DNA of 64,000 nucleotides from Escherichia coli (GTDB lineage: Bacteria > Pseudomonadota > Gammaproteobacteria > Enterobacterales > Enterobacteriaceae). Location of the stretch: assembly GCF_002854065.1 (NCBI RefSeq), contig NZ_CP024147.1; one strand, 5' to 3'. The notes below the pieces were generated by a model, which did no database searches, had not been told where the DNA came from, and was given only the letters and a program-made list of their open reading frames with translations. The number at the start of each line of letters is the position of its first letter. Position 1 is the first letter of the stretch. A program made the translations under genes and the position numbers. This document shows positions 27,670 through 32,250 of this stretch, piece by piece.

Positions 27670-28275
27670 ATGACGCTCTACCAGATAAAACCGCTCTTTC
27701 AGTCGCTGTTAAGGCCGACGATGTTTTGGCTTTATAAGCACCATGTTACAGCGAATCACATCACTCTTGCTGCACTGGCGCTTTCTCTTATTACCGGATT
27801 GCTGTTGATGTTGGTCGCACAACCCATCCTCTTTTTGCTATTGCCCATCGTGCTTTTTATCCGTATGGCACTCAATGCGCTGGATGGCATGTTGGCGCGT
27901 GAGTGCAATCTGCAAACACGTCTGGGGGCGATTTTGAATGAAACTGGCGATGTTATTTCCGATATTGCGCTCTATTTACCGTTTTTATTTTTACCAGAAA
28001 GTAACGCATCACTCGTAATACTCATGTTATTTTTCACCATATTGACTGAGTTTTGCGGTTTACTCGCGCAGACGATTAACAGTATTCGCAGTTATGCCGG
28101 TCCATTCGGCAAAAGCGATCGTGCGTTAATATTTGGGTTGTGGGGGCTGGCCGTTGCCATTTATCCACAGTGGATGCAATGGAATAATCTTTTATGGGGC
28201 ATTGCTTCAATTCTGCTTATCTGGACTGCGATTAATCGTTGTCGGAGTGTGCTCCTGATGAGTGCTGAAAGATAA
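27670..28275 (+). CDS. ynbA: CDP-alcohol phosphatidyltransferase family inner-membrane protein YnbA
   Basis: About 201 aa, multi-TM, with a D-G-x2-A-R...G-x3-D-x3-D type motif (ALDGMLARE...GDVISD). Confidence 0.8.
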   Translation: MTLYQIKPLFQSLLRPTMFWLYKHHVTANHITLAALALSLITGLLLMLVAQPILFLLLPIVLFIRMALNALDGMLARECNLQTRLGAILNETGDVISDIALYLPFLFLPESNASLVILMLFFTILTEFCGLLAQTINSIRSYAGPFGKSDRALIFGLWGLAVAIYPQWMQWNNLLWGIASILLIWTAINRCRSVLLMSAER

Positions 28276-29171
28276 TGCTGGAAAAATCTCTGGCAACACT
28301 TTTCGCGTTGTTAATTTTAGCAACGCTGATAAACCGTTTTCGGGTATGGCGGTTACCGGAGAGAAAAGAGGATGAAGTTACATTACGTATTCGTACCTGG
28401 TGGGGTATCGTCATTTGTTTTTCACTGGTGATTTCAGGTCCACGCTGGATGACGTTGACGTTTTTTGCGCTGATAAGTTTTCTGGCATTGAAAGAATATT
28501 GTACGCTTATATCCGTACATTTTCCGCGTTGGTTATATTGGGTTATTCCTCTTAACTATTTGCTTATCGGTTTTAATTGCTTTGAGCTGTTTCTGTTATT
28601 TATACCTTTGGCTGGGGTTCTGATATTAACCACCTGGCGAGTTTTAGTAGGTGATACCTCCGGTTTTCTGCATACCGTGAGCGCCATTTTTTGGGGCTGG
28701 ATAATGACCGTTTTCGCCTTGAGTCATGCCGCCTGGTTATTAATGTTGCCAACCACAAATACCCAGGGCGGGGCGTTACTGGTGTTATTTCTTTTGGCGT
28801 TAACAGAGTCAAACGATATTGCACAGTATTTATGGGGGAAATCCTGCGGCAGAAGAAAAGTGGTCCCCAAAGTCAGCCCGGGAAAAACGCTGGAAGGTCT
28901 GGTGGGGGGCGTAATCACCACCATGATTGCGTCACTGATTATTGGGCCGTTGCTGACACCGCTAAATACATTACAGGCATTATTAGCGGGTTTGTTAATT
29001 GGTATTAGTGGTTTTTGCGGCGATGTAGTGATGTCAGCCATCAAACGAGATATTGGTGTTAAAGATAGCGGAAAACTATTACCAGGACATGGCGGACTCC
29101 TTGACAGGATTGACTCATTAATTTTCACCGCTCCGGTATTTTTTTATTTTATTCGCTACTGCTGTTACTGA
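28275..29171 (+). CDS. ynbB: CDP-diglyceride synthetase (CdsA)-like membrane protein YnbB
   Basis: 298-aa multi-TM ORF; C-terminal region resembles the CdsA cytidylyltransferase signature (...LPGHGGLLDRIDSL); overlaps the ynbA stop (TAATG). Confidence 0.8.
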   Translation: MLEKSLATLFALLILATLINRFRVWRLPERKEDEVTLRIRTWWGIVICFSLVISGPRWMTLTFFALISFLALKEYCTLISVHFPRWLYWVIPLNYLLIGFNCFELFLLFIPLAGVLILTTWRVLVGDTSGFLHTVSAIFWGWIMTVFALSHAAWLLMLPTTNTQGGALLVLFLLALTESNDIAQYLWGKSCGRRKVVPKVSPGKTLEGLVGGVITTMIASLIIGPLLTPLNTLQALLAGLLIGISGFCGDVVMSAIKRDIGVKDSGKLLPGHGGLLDRIDSLIFTAPVFFYFIRYCCY

Positions 29172-29186
29172 AGGAAAATAGAGAAA

Positions 29187-30944
29187 ATGGAAAATTCACG
29201 CATCCCTGGGGAACATTTTTTTACCACCAGTGATAATACAGCGTTGTTTTATCGGCACTGGCCCGCTTTACAGCCCGGGGCGAAAAAGGTCATCGTCTTA
29301 TTTCATCGCGGTCATGAACATTCTGGTCGTCTACAACATCTCGTTGATGAACTGGCGATGCCAGATACTGCTTTTTATGCATGGGATGCCCGAGGGCATG
29401 GAAAAACTTCGGGGCCGCGTGGTTATAGCCCATCTCTTGCGCGTTCAGTGCGGGATGTCGATGAATTTGTCCGTTTTGCTGCCAGCGACAGCCAGGTCGG
29501 GCTGGAAGAGGTGGTAGTGATCGCGCAGAGCGTCGGCGCAGTGCTGGTTGCCACATGGGTTCATGATTATGCGCCTGCAATTCGCGGGCTGCTGCTGGCT
29601 TCTCCGGCCTTTAAGGTTAAATTGTATGTGCCGCTGGCACGTCCTGCGCTGGCGTTATGGCATCGTCTGCGTGGTCTGTTTTTTATTAATTCCTATGTGA
29701 AAGGACGCTATTTGACCCACGATCGGCAACGGGTGGCGAGTTTCAATAATGATCCGCTGATCACACGGGCGATTGCCGTCAATATCTTGCTCGATCTCTA
29801 TAAAACGTCTGAACGTATTGTTAGCGATGCGGCGGCGATTACGCTCCCCACGCAACTTCTGATATCAGGCGATGACTATGTGGTGCATCGCCAACCGCAG
29901 ATCGATTTTTATCTGCGTTTACGTAGCCCTCTCAAAGAGCTGCATCTGCTGCCAGGCTTTTATCACGACACGTTGGGTGAAGAGAACAGGGCGCTGGCAT
30001 TTGAAAAAATGCAAAGCTTTATTAGTCGTTTATATGCTAACAAGTCACAAAAATTTGATTATCAGCATGAAGACCGCACTGGACCATCAGCGGATCGCTG
30101 GCGGCTCCTTTCAGGTGGACCCGTGCCATTATCGCCGGTTGATTTGGCGTATCGCTTTATGCGTAAAGCGATGAAATTGTTCGGGACGCACTCTGCGGGC
30201 CTGCATCTCGGAATGAGCACCGGCTTTGATTCAGGCAGTTCGCTGGATTATGTCTATCAAAATCAACCGCAAGGTAGTAACGCATTCGGGCGCTTAATCG
30301 ACAAAATCTACCTGAACAGTGTTGGCTGGCGCGGTATTCGCCAGCGCAAAACCCATTTACAAATACTGATTAAACAAGCCGTTGCCGATCTCCACGCCAA
30401 AGGTTTAGCCGTCCGCGTGGTTGACATTGCCGCAGGGCATGGGCGCTATGTACTGGATGCGCTGGCAAACGAGCCTGCCGTAAGCGATATTTTGTTACGT
30501 GATTACAGCGAGTTAAATGTTGCACAGGGGCAAGAGATGATTGCTCAACGGGGAATGTCTGGGCGGGTGCGTTTTGAACAGGGCGATGCGTTTAACCCGG
30601 AGGAACTCAGCGCGTTAACTCCGCGGCCTACGCTGGCGATTGTCTCTGGCCTGTATGAGCTTTTTCCCGAAAATGAGCAGGTAAAAAACTCACTCGCAGG
30701 TCTTGCCAATGCCATCGAACCGGGCGGCATTCTCCTCTACACCGGGCAGCCGTGGCACCCACAACTGGAGCTGATTGCCGGGGTGTTAACCAGTCATAAA
30801 GATGGTAAACCGTGGGTAATGCGCGTGCGTTCTCAAGGGGAGATGGATTCACTCGTGCGTGATGCCGGATTTGATAAATGCACACAACGGATTGATGAGT
30901 GGGGTATTTTTACGGTTTCGATGGCGGTGCGTCGTGATAACTGA
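29187..30944 (+). CDS. ynbC: Two-domain protein YnbC: alpha/beta-hydrolase (lysophospholipase-like) fused to a SAM-dependent methyltransferase-like domain
   Basis: 585-aa ORF; N-terminal part has hydrolase-like features (HGxxEHSGR), C-terminal part has a methyltransferase-like glycine-rich motif ([10 protein letters not shown]). Confidence 0.78.
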
Positions 30945-32250
30945 ACGTCGGAACGTATTGCTACAAGGCGCTGGCTGGTTATTGTTGCTGGCCCCGTTTT
31001 TCTTCTTCACCTATGGATCTCTTAATCAGTTCACCGCGGTTCAGGACCTTAACAGCCATGATATCCCCAGTCAGGTATTCGGTTGGGAAACGGCGATCCC
31101 TTTTCTTCCCTGGACTATTGTTCCTTACTGGAGTCTGGATCTTATATATGGATTTTCGCTGTTCGTTTGTAGCTCGACATTCGAACTGCGCCGACTTGTC
31201 CACCGGCTTATTCTGGCAACGGTAATGGCCTGCTGCGGTTTTTTTCTCTACCCGCTGAAGTTTAGTTTTATCCGTCCTGAAGTGAGTGGGGTGACAGGAT
31301 GGCTATTTTCGCAACTTGAACTGTTTGATCTGCCCTATAACCAGTCTCCTTCGCTGCATATTATTCTCTGCTGGCTACTTTGGCGTCACTTTCGTCAGCA
31401 TCTGGCTGTGAGGTGGCGTAAAGTCTGCGGCGGATGGTTTTTACTCATCGCCATTTCGACGCTGACAACCTGGCAGCATCATTTTATTGATGTCATCACA
31501 GGGCTGGCGGTAGGTATGTTGATTGACTGGATGGTACCCGTCGACCGTCGTTGGAATTATCAGAAACCTGATCAACGTCGAATCAAAATAGCACTGCCAT
31601 ATGTCGTAGGCGCGTGCGCGTGCATTGTGTTGATGGAGCTAATGATGATGGTTCAGTTATGGTGGTCAGTCTGGTTATGTTGGCCAGTATTATCGCTACT
31701 CATTATTGGCCGTGGGTACGGTGGGCTTGGCGCGATAACAACAGGGAAAGATAGTCAGGGGAAACTCCCGCCCGCCGTTTACTGGCTGACATTGCCCTGG
31801 CGTATCGGGATGTGGCTATCTATGCGTTGGTTTTGTCGTCGCCTGGAGCCGGTGAGCAAAATGACTGCTGGTGTTTATTTAGGGGCGTTTCCACGACATA
31901 TTCCGGCACAGAATGCGGTTCTGGACGTCACCTTTGAATTCCCTCGCGGACGAGCGACAAAAGATCGACTCTATTTCTGTGTACCGATGTTGGATCTGGT
32001 GGTTCCGGAAGAGGGGGAGCTCCGACAGGCCGTGGCGATGCTGGAAACATTACGCGAAGAGCAAGGCAGCGTTCTGGTCCATTGCGCATTGGGATTATCG
32101 CGCAGTGCGCTGGTAGTGGCGGCATGGCTGTTATGTTACGGACACTGTAAAACAGTTGATGAAGCGATTAGCTTTATTCGAGTCAGACGCTCGCAGATTG
32201 TGCTTAAGGAAGAGCACAAAGCGATGCTGAAATTATCGGAAAACAGGTAA
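30934..32250 (+). CDS. ynbD: YnbD: membrane-anchored dual-specificity (Cys-based) phosphatase-like protein
   Basis: N-terminal multi-TM region and C-terminal HCxxGxxRS phosphatase motif ([10 protein letters not shown]). Start uncertain: GTG at 30934 overlapping the ynbC stop, or another in-frame start shortly downstream. Confidence 0.75.

Follow-up and report, generated by a model that had tools for sequence, protein, structure and literature searches.

The ynbABCD operon of Escherichia coli, an apparently trimmed form of a wider cluster of lipid enzymes that may build and modify a minor glycerophospholipid

Positions 27670-32250 of the window, by which we mean the whole 64,000-nucleotide stretch of E. 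coli DNA analysed, correspond to ynbABCD, four open reading frames on one strand (+); the stretch is 100% identical to that of E. coli CUWW06, where PGAP calls exactly ynbA, ynbB, ynbC and ynbD. The first gene, ynbA (27670-28275), codes for a CDP-alcohol phosphatidyltransferase-family membrane protein of 201 aa (PF01066), ynbB (28275-29171) for a CdsA paralogue (CDP-diacylglycerol synthase) of 298 aa (CTP_transf_1), ynbC (29187-30944) for a cytoplasmic hydrolase-methyltransferase fusion of 585 aa (Hydrolase_4 and Methyltransf_20), and ynbD (30958-32250) for a two-domain membrane protein of 430 aa (PAP2_3 and DSPc). The enzyme families given to these products in a preliminary description of the locus were borne out by Pfam, and its picture of four tightly packed genes also holds: the ynbA stop overlaps the ynbB start by 1 nt in the TAATG that it had noted (28272-28276), and a 15-nt spacer with an AAGGA ribosome-binding site separates ynbB from ynbC. 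The overlap that it suspected between ynbC and ynbD depends on the start codon, since the TTG at 30958 called by PGAP leaves a 13-nt gap after ynbC, whereas the alternative in-frame ATG 30895 and GTG 30859 give overlaps of 50 and 86 nt, respectively. The longest ynbD ORFs of the orthologues mostly overlap ynbC, by about 45 nt, and because the stretch upstream of TTG 30958 reads through the conserved C-terminus of YnbC in its +1 frame, conservation cannot decide the start.

Between the convergent ynbD and azoR lies a stable hairpin with an 11-bp stem (32260-32289; -21.8 kcal/mol, z = -3.27), the probable end of the transcription unit, which the terminator scan did not call because it has no T-run. 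The operon promoter is expected in the ydbD-ynbA intergenic region (27501-27669, + strand), where our scan found no consensus sigma-70 match and to which a BglJ-RcsB-activated, H-NS-repressed ynbA promoter has been mapped (PMC3950696). Within the operon, promoter and terminator matches were not above chance. The close packing, with gaps of 15 and 13 nt besides the 1-nt overlap, and the lack of such matches above chance were both counted in favour of a single pathway.

Of 5426 complete E. coli genomes, 4765 match the ynb stretch at 95-100% identity, and in 4283 of these the match covers 80% or more of it; about 12% of complete genomes are without the operon, and in about one fifth it is absent or partial. 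Beyond E. coli, the loci surveyed came from Enterobacterales, Morganellaceae, Neisseriaceae, Burkholderiales, Rhodocyclales, Pseudomonas, Bradyrhizobium and one Acidobacteria MAG. The analysis of co-occurrence across genomes that the preliminary description had proposed placed ynbA, ynbC and ynbD next to each other in 74 of 80 loci (80 genomes, several proteobacterial orders), 14 loci having this core without ynbB. Two YnbA-YnbC fusion proteins were also found (P0243 and P0271), the former in an otherwise ordinary locus. On sequence evidence, adjacency across orders and natural fusions strongly support one functional lipid module. Relatives carry more than the four genes: a gene for a PlsC-like acyltransferase, whose best match is the Aas/PlsC lysophospholipid acyltransferase domain, adjoins ynbB in 62 of 63 loci, many relatives add a gene for a small membrane protein, and one has a patatin phospholipase within the cluster. 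No head-group precursor gene linked to the cluster was found. The acyltransferase gene is at the ynb locus of no E. coli chromosome in the 5426 genomes, which hold the five-gene form on three plasmids only, and the Morganellaceae clusters are also without it. Judged by its relatives, chromosomal ynbABCD is a reduced form of a cluster whose usual complement is five or six genes.

Such a reduction could mean that the cluster is functional where relatives have retained the acyltransferase, while the four-gene version of E. coli is silent, yields nothing distinct and persists mainly by drift or because YnbB offers spare CDP-DAG synthase activity. The loss of the acyltransferase from all E. coli chromosomes and of all or part of the locus from so many genomes agrees with this, as do the low GC across ynbA-ynbB, the H-NS silencing (PMC3950696) and the lack of a robust knockout phenotype (PMC6362211, PMC7413402), the effect of a ynbC::Tn insertion not having been reproduced in the Keio strain (PMC2435150). 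We find this reading rather doubtful, however, because the four ORFs are intact and full-length against their orthologues, with all conserved catalytic residues present, and their identity is high over the 4765 genomes; phosphatidate could come from housekeeping PlsC, and both ynbB, by cold (PMC11413397), and ynbA, via BglJ-RcsB (PMC3950696), can be induced.

YnbB (PF01148, CTP_transf_1, 2.4e-70 in Pfam) carries the complete CdsA signature S254AIKR…KD…HGG..DRID, from residue 254. It was rejected as a housekeeping CdsA orthologue, with a score of 109.6 against the NCBIfam equivalog cut-off of 385 bits and only the C-terminal half aligned. Published work describes YnbB as a CdsA paralogue that is unable to sustain bulk phospholipid synthesis, and loss of ynbB altered neither lipids nor MPIase (PMC6362211). 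Because the enzyme produces CDP-DAG in vitro and backs up the synthesis of the glycolipid MPIase (PMC6362211, PMC7018664), the earlier statement that the operon has no established product fails for this member.

YnbA matches CDP-OH_P_transf in Pfam (i-E 3.2e-8, residues 27-175), and its PDB matches are PIP synthase, AF2299, CHPT1 and PgsA, the closest solved structure being M. tuberculosis PIP synthase 6h53 (E = 1e-5). In homology it is closest to PIP and archaetidylinositol-P synthases, and it lies below the NCBIfam equivalog cut-offs for AIPS (71.6 vs 180 bits), PIPS (41.7 vs 170 bits) and PgsA (28 vs 109 bits). CDP-alcohol phosphatidyltransferases carry the four-Asp di-metal signature D1xxD2GxxARx8GxxxD3xxxD4, in which we take the roles of D1-D4 from PMC6506517. 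The canonical DGxxARx8GxxxDxxxD pattern has no match in YnbA, which reads N69xxD72GxxARx8GxxxN90xxxD94xxxD98: two of the four Asp are Asn, at D1 (N69) and D3 (N90), and these are two of the three Mg-1 ligands (equivalents of PgsA1 D68 and D89; PMC6506517). Degenerate catalytic motifs, which according to the preliminary description would have spoken against a lipid pathway, are thus present in part, but the variant signature NxxDG…GxxxNxxxD is invariant in 78 of 78 YnbA orthologues, which makes it a feature of the subfamily and not decay. PIP synthases require an Arg directly after D4 (PgsA1 R94) for the use of Ino-P (PMC6506517), and the residue in YnbA is V95 (Val or Ile in orthologues), not basic. 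With Asn at two Mg-1 ligands and no Arg after D4, YnbA cannot be assumed to catalyse in the canonical way. R151 and R190, neither of which varies among orthologues, align to the Arg pair that holds the acceptor phosphate in PgsA1, R155 and R195 (PMC6506517); the R151 mapping is of moderate confidence because the HMMER gap is shifted by 1 residue.

In YnbC, a monoacylglycerol-lipase-like hydrolase domain (residues 32-266, 29280-29984; Hydrolase_4, 2e-66) is joined to a SAM methyltransferase domain (residues 275-582, 30009-30932; Methyltransf_20, PF12147, 2.6e-152), and the AF2 model has a pLDDT of 95.9. The PDB sequence matches of the hydrolase are monoacylglycerol lipases (1e-13), Foldseek gives a TM of about 0.89 against Rv0183 and human MGL, and the triad is kept (S115 in 50, D230 in 56 and H260 in 55 of 59 sequences). 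Of the SAM motifs, D413-I-A-A-G417-x-G419 (motif I), D439 (the acidic residue that follows beta-2) and D467-A-F (the adenine motif) are nearly invariant, as expected of a class I SAM-dependent methyltransferase. Distant YnbC homologues all lie in lipid contexts, next to CdsA-like and PlsC-like genes, patatin, PEMT-like genes or ACP-KS-DH-KR sets; together with the conserved linkage, the fusions and the catalytic residues, these contexts were counted in favour of the pathway reading. The likeness of the hydrolase to monoacylglycerol lipases or lysophospholipases, the match of the linked acyltransferase to Aas/PlsC and the patatin of one relative would also suit turnover or remodelling instead of biosynthesis, with the lipase-like domain and the acyltransferase in a deacylation-reacylation cycle and the phosphatase domains, with YnbA and YnbB, salvaging glycerophospho-backbones. 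We consider this very unlikely, as it leaves a dedicated CDP-alcohol transferase, a hydrolase-fused SAM methyltransferase and an SMS/Aur1-like domain unexplained; furthermore, the acyltransferase tracks ynbB and not ynbC, and E. coli and Morganellaceae are wholly without it.

YnbD, described earlier as a membrane-anchored Cys-phosphatase, matches PAP2_3 (2e-4) and DSPc (3e-25) in Pfam. The phosphatase stands: residues 299-430 (31852-32247) form a dual-specificity Cys-phosphatase with an HCX5R(S/T) P-loop, a general-acid Asp and a DSP fold. What was taken for a mere anchor is a conserved domain of PAP2_3 catalytic type (residues 1 to ~195, 30958-31542), followed by two more transmembrane helices. 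Neither E. coli YnbD nor 70 of the 71 orthologues have the C1 motif KX6RP of PgpB/LPP-type phosphomonoesterases; PSLH134 stands for the PAP2 C2 motif PSGH, and S167-V168-x5-H174-x3-D178, with Val at the Arg position, for the C3 motif SRX5HX3D. The His/His/Asp set of the domain is invariant, and the orthologues keep PSLH (70/71), QHHxxD (71/71) and CxxGxxRS (70/71). In its PAP2_3 profile, in having His/His/Asp but no C1, and in a fold nearest to that of SMS or IPC synthase, this N-domain of eight helices fits the SMS/Aur1 type; among head-group transferases it most resembles SMSr and Aur1. From the helix order of the AF2 model and the positive-inside rule we infer that the His/His/Asp site is probably periplasmic and the DSP cytoplasmic. 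Over-expressed YnbD rescues neither PGP-phosphatase- nor C55-PP-phosphatase-deficient thermosensitive strains (PMC7413402).

Could the operon be a branch of MPIase synthesis? YnbA would then join a sugar-1-phosphate (e.g. GlcNAc-1-P) to the CDP-DAG of YnbB, giving X-PP-DAG, with its less acidic Asn/Asp/Asn/Asp site making room for the added negative charge, the PAP2-like domain of YnbD recycling, on the periplasmic face, the released diacylglycerol pyrophosphate, and YnbC and the DSP tailoring or editing. Over-production of YnbB raises MPIase, and YnbB with Tam41 replaces CdsA (PMC6362211, PMC7018664); the translational coupling of ynbA to ynbB, the invariance of the variant metal site and the conserved anion-binding Arg pair would fit, and the MPIase studies that we consulted left out ynbA, ynbC and ynbD. 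Such a branch is nevertheless unlikely. MPIase is reportedly essential, yet about 12% of the complete E. coli genomes do without the operon, it is H-NS-silenced (PMC3950696) and MPIase is normal in the ynbB knockout (PMC6362211); moreover, the 14 loci have the core without ynbB, the published model gives compound I synthesis to CdsA/YnbB itself, and the YnbD N-domain is without the basic residues that a pyrophosphate monoesterase should have in C1 and C3.

We propose, at about an even chance of being right, that the ynb cluster is a pathway for making, and afterwards using, a minor glycerophospholipid or head group; like the preliminary description, we infer the making and trimming of an unusual polar lipid. 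The cluster would be horizontally mobile, the E. coli chromosome holding its reduced form. YnbB would supply a CDP-diacylglycerol pool, private to judge from gene linkage, and in other taxa the PlsC-like lysophospholipid acyltransferase would work alongside it. The PIP-synthase-like YnbA, with its Asn/Asp/Asn/Asp site, may use a phosphorylated or otherwise anionic alcohol as acceptor of the phosphatidyl group, its Arg pair being kept for anion binding, and the cytoplasmic Cys-phosphatase domain of YnbD would strip the phosphate from this product, by the logic of PgsA with PTPMT1 or of PIP synthase with PIP phosphatase. Cytoplasmic YnbC would methylate the head group or the lipid, and its lipase-like domain take off an acyl chain. 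The YnbD N-domain, with more likeness to sphingomyelin/inositol-phosphoceramide synthases than to phosphomonoesterases, may act at the outer leaflet, where it would transfer or cleave the phospho-head group. H-NS normally keeps the E. coli operon silent, and BglJ-RcsB or cold turns it on (PMC3950696, PMC11413397). The literature reports no ynb-dependent lipid, and full-text searches for ynbABCD and PF12147 gave nothing; this counts against the proposal, as do the failure of YnbD to rescue the phosphatase-deficient strains, the ynbB knockout without a phenotype, the departures of YnbA from the canonical metal site and the lack of a linked precursor gene.

A more specific proposal, which we advance tentatively and with some doubt, is that YnbD is two-faced, a periplasmic SMS/Aur1-like transferase and a cytoplasmic lipid Cys-phosphatase, and that the donor phospholipid of the operon, possibly methylated, decorates an envelope acceptor. 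The donor lipid would here be made on the inner leaflet via the previously undescribed Asn/Asp/Asn/Asp site of YnbA. If true, this would be a new type of envelope modification pathway in Proteobacteria, hidden in K-12 by H-NS silencing; if the operon is cryptic, our finding amounts only to tidy annotation.

The ynb genes are already known; what is undescribed is their biochemistry. No lipid system has been studied better than that of E. coli K-12, and yet it has a conserved lipid-enzyme operon without a known product. The advance lies in presenting this operon as the trimmed form of a widespread, probably mobile cluster, with a transferase of conserved non-canonical site and a "phosphatase" that bears a sphingomyelin-synthase-like domain, predicted to face the periplasm. 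These results turn a vague y-gene annotation into concrete questions on the acceptor, the methyl target and the envelope receiver, and set the published claim that YnbB is dedicated to MPIase in its operon context. A possible payoff is a new minor phospholipid or envelope decoration bearing on stress responses (Rcs, cold).

Several known systems resemble this arrangement. The E. coli route from CdsA through PgsA to PgpA/B/C has the same enzyme order (CDP-DAG synthase, CDP-alcohol transferase, phosphatase), and YnbB shares the C-terminal catalytic half and signature of CdsA; unlike that route, the ynb genes are non-essential and silenced. Mitochondrial PGP synthase works with PTPMT1 (structure 3rgq). 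The YnbD P-loop CALGLSRS is without the basic residues of PTPMT1 and PTEN, and YnbD fails to complement E. coli pgpABC deficiency (PMC7413402). The YnbD N-domain has only 12-13% sequence identity with SMSr and the Aur1 inositol-phosphoceramide synthase, and no ceramide pathway is known in ynb hosts. In MPIase biosynthesis, YnbB is one of two enzymes published for the first intermediate (PMC6362211), but the literature never linked ynbA, ynbC or ynbD to MPIase, and the distribution and silencing of ynb do not fit an essential function. Compared with the inositol-lipid cluster BT_1522-BT_1526 of Bacteroides thetaiotaomicron (PMC9246714), the ynb cluster is without a myo-inositol-phosphate synthase, its phosphatase is a Cys-based DSP fused to the transferase domain and not of PgpA type, it has in addition a hydrolase-methyltransferase and a CdsA of its own, accompanied in some hosts by the PlsC-like gene, YnbA has Asn at D1 and D3 and is without the Arg after D4 that Ino-P users need, and its hosts are not known to make ceramide. 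The two clusters nevertheless share the same logic and families: BT_1523 and YnbA are both small PIP-synthase-type CDP-alcohol phosphatidyltransferases, BT_1525 is a dedicated phosphatase for a phosphorylated intermediate, as the YnbD DSP is proposed to be, and BT_1522 is a head-group transferase of the Aur1-like PAP2_3 type, as the YnbD N-domain may be (PMC9246714).

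Our results show that the ynb module is real, mobile and lipid-related, and that ynbABCD of E. coli is a reduced form of a cluster found in other bacteria. The four-gene operon described at 27670-32250 is borne out, with plus-strand ORFs for ynbA (27670-28275), ynbB (28275-29171), ynbC (29187-30944) and ynbD (30958-32250). The E. coli CUWW06 chromosome carries a 100% identical stretch, in which PGAP names the genes ynbA, ynbB, ynbC and ynbD, and 4765 of the 5426 complete E. coli genomes searched carry the locus at 95-100% identity, 4283 of these with 80% or more of its length. 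The ynbA stop and the ynbB start do share a TAATG, at 28272-28276, and ynbB and ynbC are separated by 15 nt with the ribosome-binding site AAGGA. The overlap of ynbC with ynbD suggested in the preliminary description depends on the start codon: it is lost with the TTG chosen by PGAP at 30958, which leaves a 13-nt gap, and is found with the upstream in-frame starts, ATG at 30895 (50-nt overlap) or GTG at 30859 (86 nt). Conservation cannot decide among these ynbD starts, since what is read upstream in the ynbD frame is the conserved C-terminal part of YnbC in the +1 frame. A promoter and terminator scan inside the operon gave no matches above chance; a strong hairpin at 32260-32289 (-21.8 kcal/mol, z = -3.3) lies between ynbD and the convergent azoR gene. 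The GC content is 42-45% over ynbA-ynbB (27600-29400) versus 49-54% over ynbC-ynbD (29200-32200), a contrast that may reflect a mosaic origin. The ynbA promoter is activated by BglJ-RcsB and repressed by H-NS (PMC3950696), and the low GC over ynbA-ynbB is consistent with this silencing.

Several other features were observed in the window. Upstream of ynbA, the ydbD gene (DUF2773 bactofilin) is interrupted by an IS1 element (24411-27500), with an N-terminal ORF at 24411-25742, the IS1 ORFs at 25771-26468 and a C-terminal ORF at 26514-27500. This split arrangement, with at least 80% of it in one place, was found in only 32 of the 5426 complete E. coli genomes; in CUWW06, whose ynb region is identical, IS1 is at the same spot and is joined directly to ydbL. 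The DNA studied here is therefore from another strain, or from one without that deletion. Rfam matches above the gathering score identified FnrS (2990-3107, + strand), MicC (7918-8038, + strand), RydC (41494-41557, - strand) and the sok antitoxin RNA (42117-42268, - strand), the last implying a hok/sok locus. Among the protein records, an 889-aa E. coli entry (P0002; PF01148 + PF12146 + PF12147) is a YnbB-YnbC fusion, plausible given the 15-nt spacer; the record may stem from a genuine stop-loss allele or from an error in sequencing.

To define the cluster in relatives, one genome per GTDB species was scanned with a YnbC alignment, and the ORFs of the best 80 loci, out of at least 595 confirmed hits, were searched with phmmer; these 80 belong to Enterobacterales, Morganellaceae, Neisseriaceae, Burkholderiales, Rhodocyclales, Pseudomonas, Bradyrhizobium and one Acidobacteria MAG. 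Within these best 80 loci, ynbA, ynbC and ynbD lie side by side in 74, and the position of ynbB varies: 14 loci, from Enterobacterales plus two non-enterobacterial ones, read A-B-t-C-D; 41, from Pseudomonas, Burkholderiales and Rhodocyclales, read A-C-D-t-B; and 14 have no ynbB, most of them from Morganellaceae, with three others. The gene denoted t codes for a PlsC/Aas-type lysophospholipid acyltransferase of 206-213 aa with the motifs HX4D and FPEGTR, and adjoins ynbB in 62 of the 63 ynbB-bearing loci of this set. The genes are further tied by fusion proteins: two YnbA-YnbC fusions were recovered (P0243 and P0271), the former from a locus in which the fused gene is followed as usual by D, t and B, and another record, P0340, looks like a YnbC-YnbD fusion. 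In many A-C-D-t-B loci a membrane protein of about 150 aa is encoded after ynbD and before the acyltransferase gene (13082-13537 in locus L043); this protein of the Pseudomonas and Burkholderiales loci falls in no family of Pfam or NCBIfam and has no counterpart in E. coli; it might serve as an accessory subunit or as a flippase. The genes flanking the cluster are not conserved among the relatives' loci, so that no head-group precursor gene was found by linkage. CdsA-like and PlsC-like genes also stand beside a distant YnbC homologue on one contig, where a neighbour with a Por secretion tail suggests Bacteroidota. Other contigs showed a PEMT/ICMT-like methyltransferase after YnbB-YnbC (L089, 3064-3660) and, near distant YnbC homologues, a patatin phospholipase, a short-chain dehydrogenase and a 592-aa PAP2_3 protein (L087, 9768-14629), or an ACP-ketosynthase-dehydratase-ketoreductase-'Metal_hydrol' set (L005 and L090 3649-7830).

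The 15-nt gap between ynbB and ynbC leaves no room for the acyltransferase gene on the E. coli chromosome, and the Citrobacter version, used as query, turned up in just 3 of 5426 E. coli genomes, on plasmids every time. These plasmids (NZ_CP027341.1, retrieved as L091, at 4844-8761; NZ_CP045714.1; NZ_CP166875.1) bear a second, Citrobacter-like copy of the cluster, arranged ynbA-ynbB-AT-ynbC, with about 76% DNA identity. One carrier is a conjugative IncK2/Z plasmid with an IS66 element after its cluster; ynbD is missing from the PLSDB gene table for the plasmid cluster, and may be truncated there. Loss of the acyltransferase, together with the missing phenotypes, would fit ynbABCD being a cryptic remnant in E. 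coli, a reading that we consider unlikely and that the intactness of every ORF and catalytic residue argues against.

The protein assignments of the preliminary description were upheld for YnbA, YnbB and YnbC. YnbB (298 aa) is a CdsA paralogue (PF01148, 2e-70) with a complete C-terminal CdsA signature, scoring 110 bits against the CdsA equivalog versus the 385 required. Published work has shown that YnbB makes CDP-DAG in vitro, that its over-production increases the glycolipid MPIase, that it can stand in for CdsA only if bulk CDP-DAG comes from yeast Tam41, and that deletion of ynbB alone has no phenotype (PMC6362211, PMC7018664). The gene is cold-induced (PMC11413397).

YnbA (201 aa) gives a weak but clear match to the CDP-alcohol phosphatidyltransferase family (PF01066, 3e-8). 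Its top curated-family matches, archaetidylinositol-phosphate synthase and PIP synthase, are both far under the cut-off, and the nearest solved structure is the PIP synthase PgsA1 of M. tuberculosis (6h53, E = 1e-5). Alignment with PgsA1 gives the motif N69-x2-D72-G-x2-A-R-x8-G-x3-N90-x3-D94-x3-D98, in which Asn stands in place of the family signature's first and third Asp. In PgsA1, Mg-1 is held by D68, D71 and D89, and Mg-2 by D89 and D93, with D93 presumed to act as catalytic base (PMC6506517); in YnbA this base is retained, and the di-metal site is left with half its carboxylates. Decay is not the explanation, since the same Asn variant is present in all 78 intact YnbA orthologues recovered, from several orders, and in the two YnbA-YnbC fusions. 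YnbA also lacks the Arg that follows the fourth Asp (R94 in PgsA1), crucial in enzymes using inositol phosphate (PMC6506517), and its invariant R151 and R190 occupy the positions of PgsA1 R155 and R195, the acceptor-phosphate-binding pair. From these residues, the acceptor is probably an anionic, and probably phosphorylated, alcohol. A true PIP synthase or PgsA is ruled out by the equivalog cut-offs and the absent R94 equivalent. The old annotation as diacylglycerol cholinephosphotransferase is rejected as well, CHPT1 and CEPT1 being merely marginal matches, and EcoCyc has withdrawn the "cholinephosphotransferase" label (PMC3781023). A homologous-protein search with YnbA and YnbC returned solely relatives of at least 66% identity, with no functional names.

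A role of the module in an MPIase or pyrophosphate-lipid branch, with YnbA making X-PP-DAG, would fit what has been published on YnbB and the lowered acidity of the YnbA metal site. It sits badly with the patchy occurrence of the cluster, its silencing and the existence of A-C-D loci without ynbB; we regard this branch as quite improbable. The MPIase papers examined never mention ynbA, ynbC or ynbD.

YnbC (585 aa) is a hydrolase-methyltransferase fusion, with Hydrolase_4 (residues 32-266) and Methyltransf_20 (275-582, 3e-152) domains. In its high-confidence AF2 model (pLDDT 95.9) the hydrolase half aligns structurally with the monoacylglycerol lipases of mycobacteria and humans (TM about 0.89), and Ser115/Asp230/His260 and the SAM-binding motifs are kept among 59 diverse homologues. 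The matches listed by Foldseek for the whole model were all to the hydrolase domain, giving no clue to the methyltransferase substrate; this was likewise not inferable from a methyltransferase-domain profile, which retrieved only generic class I enzymes among PDB sequences (best "Methyltransferase type 12", 3e-6; CFA synthase, 8.5e-4). Polyphosphate accumulation has been reported for a ynbC transposon mutant in one strain background and was not seen in Keio (PMC2435150). That the operon is a lysolipid remodelling system seems to us very improbable.

For YnbD (430 aa), the earlier view of a membrane-anchored Cys-phosphatase stands as regards the DSPc domain (306-429), and is incomplete in that a second catalytic-type domain, PAP2_3 (69-189), precedes it. 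An alignment of 18 sequences shows as invariant P131-S-L-H134, S167-V-x5-H174-H175-x2-D178, D346 and C376-x2-G-x2-R382-S, and among 71 orthologues PSLH is present in 70, QHHxxD in 71 and the CX5R loop in 70, with the C1 motif KX6RP in just one. A profile search aligned the C3 region with that of mammalian LPP1 (SRvsdykHHwsD), the C3 Arg being Val in YnbD; against PDB sequences the N-domain profile gave only weak matches, to the C3 region of mammalian LPP1/2. These counts and this alignment point to PAP2 His/His/Asp chemistry without the basic-residue clamp on a terminal phosphate, which is, judged by sequence, the residue pattern of phosphodiester head-group transferases. Over-expressed YnbD did not rescue strains without C55-PP or PGP phosphatases, and a strain from which all four PAP2 genes are missing is viable (PMC7413402). 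The transferase-like reading agrees with this failure, which, together with the missing C1 and C3 basic residues, rules out YnbD as a PGP or C55-PP phosphatase. A topology was derived by combining the positive-inside rule with the helix order of the model, using as basic segments TERRNV (which precedes the PGAP start), R79/R80/R83, R145-H150 and 199-213. On this prediction, the ends of helices 4 and 6 that bear the His/His/Asp site would face the periplasm, and the DSP domain would be cytoplasmic. YnbD residues 208-425 (31579-32232), spanning the last two transmembrane helices and the DSP domain, also match the 546-aa 'hypothetical protein' family PRK12361 of NCBIfam (1.9e-28), so the membrane-tethered DSP module is present in another, longer protein family too.

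A full-text literature search found nothing on ynbABCD, on Methyltransf_20/PF12147 or on the domain combination, and no publication treating the four genes as one pathway. The bare finding of ynbABCD is not new, since databases already list the genes as "function unknown"; new here is how far the module really extends and that it is mobile, that the E. coli chromosome has lost the acyltransferase, that YnbA has an invariant Asn/Asp/Asn/Asp site, and that YnbD carries a transferase-like domain predicted to face the periplasm.

We propose a five-step lipid pathway, whose outline we hold with even confidence and each single step with less. YnbB, whose synthesis of CDP-DAG has been shown, would supply it at the cytoplasmic side of the membrane, in other taxa with input from the linked acyltransferase; YnbA would condense CDP-DAG with an anionic alcohol; the cytoplasmic DSP domain of YnbD would take off the phosphate; YnbC would methylate or deacylate the lipid or its head group; and, after flipping, the periplasm-facing SMS/Aur1-like domain of YnbD would pass on or cleave the phospho-head group. 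The mitochondrial PGP synthase and PTPMT1 work as a pair, which is mirrored by the pairing of a CDP-alcohol transferase with a Cys-phosphatase in the ynb system. Similarly, the inositol-lipid cluster of Bacteroides uses first a PIP synthase, then a PIP phosphatase and then an Aur1 homologue (PMC9246714), and the second, third and fifth ynb steps would follow the same logic. The ynb system is a variant of known lipid head-group pathways.
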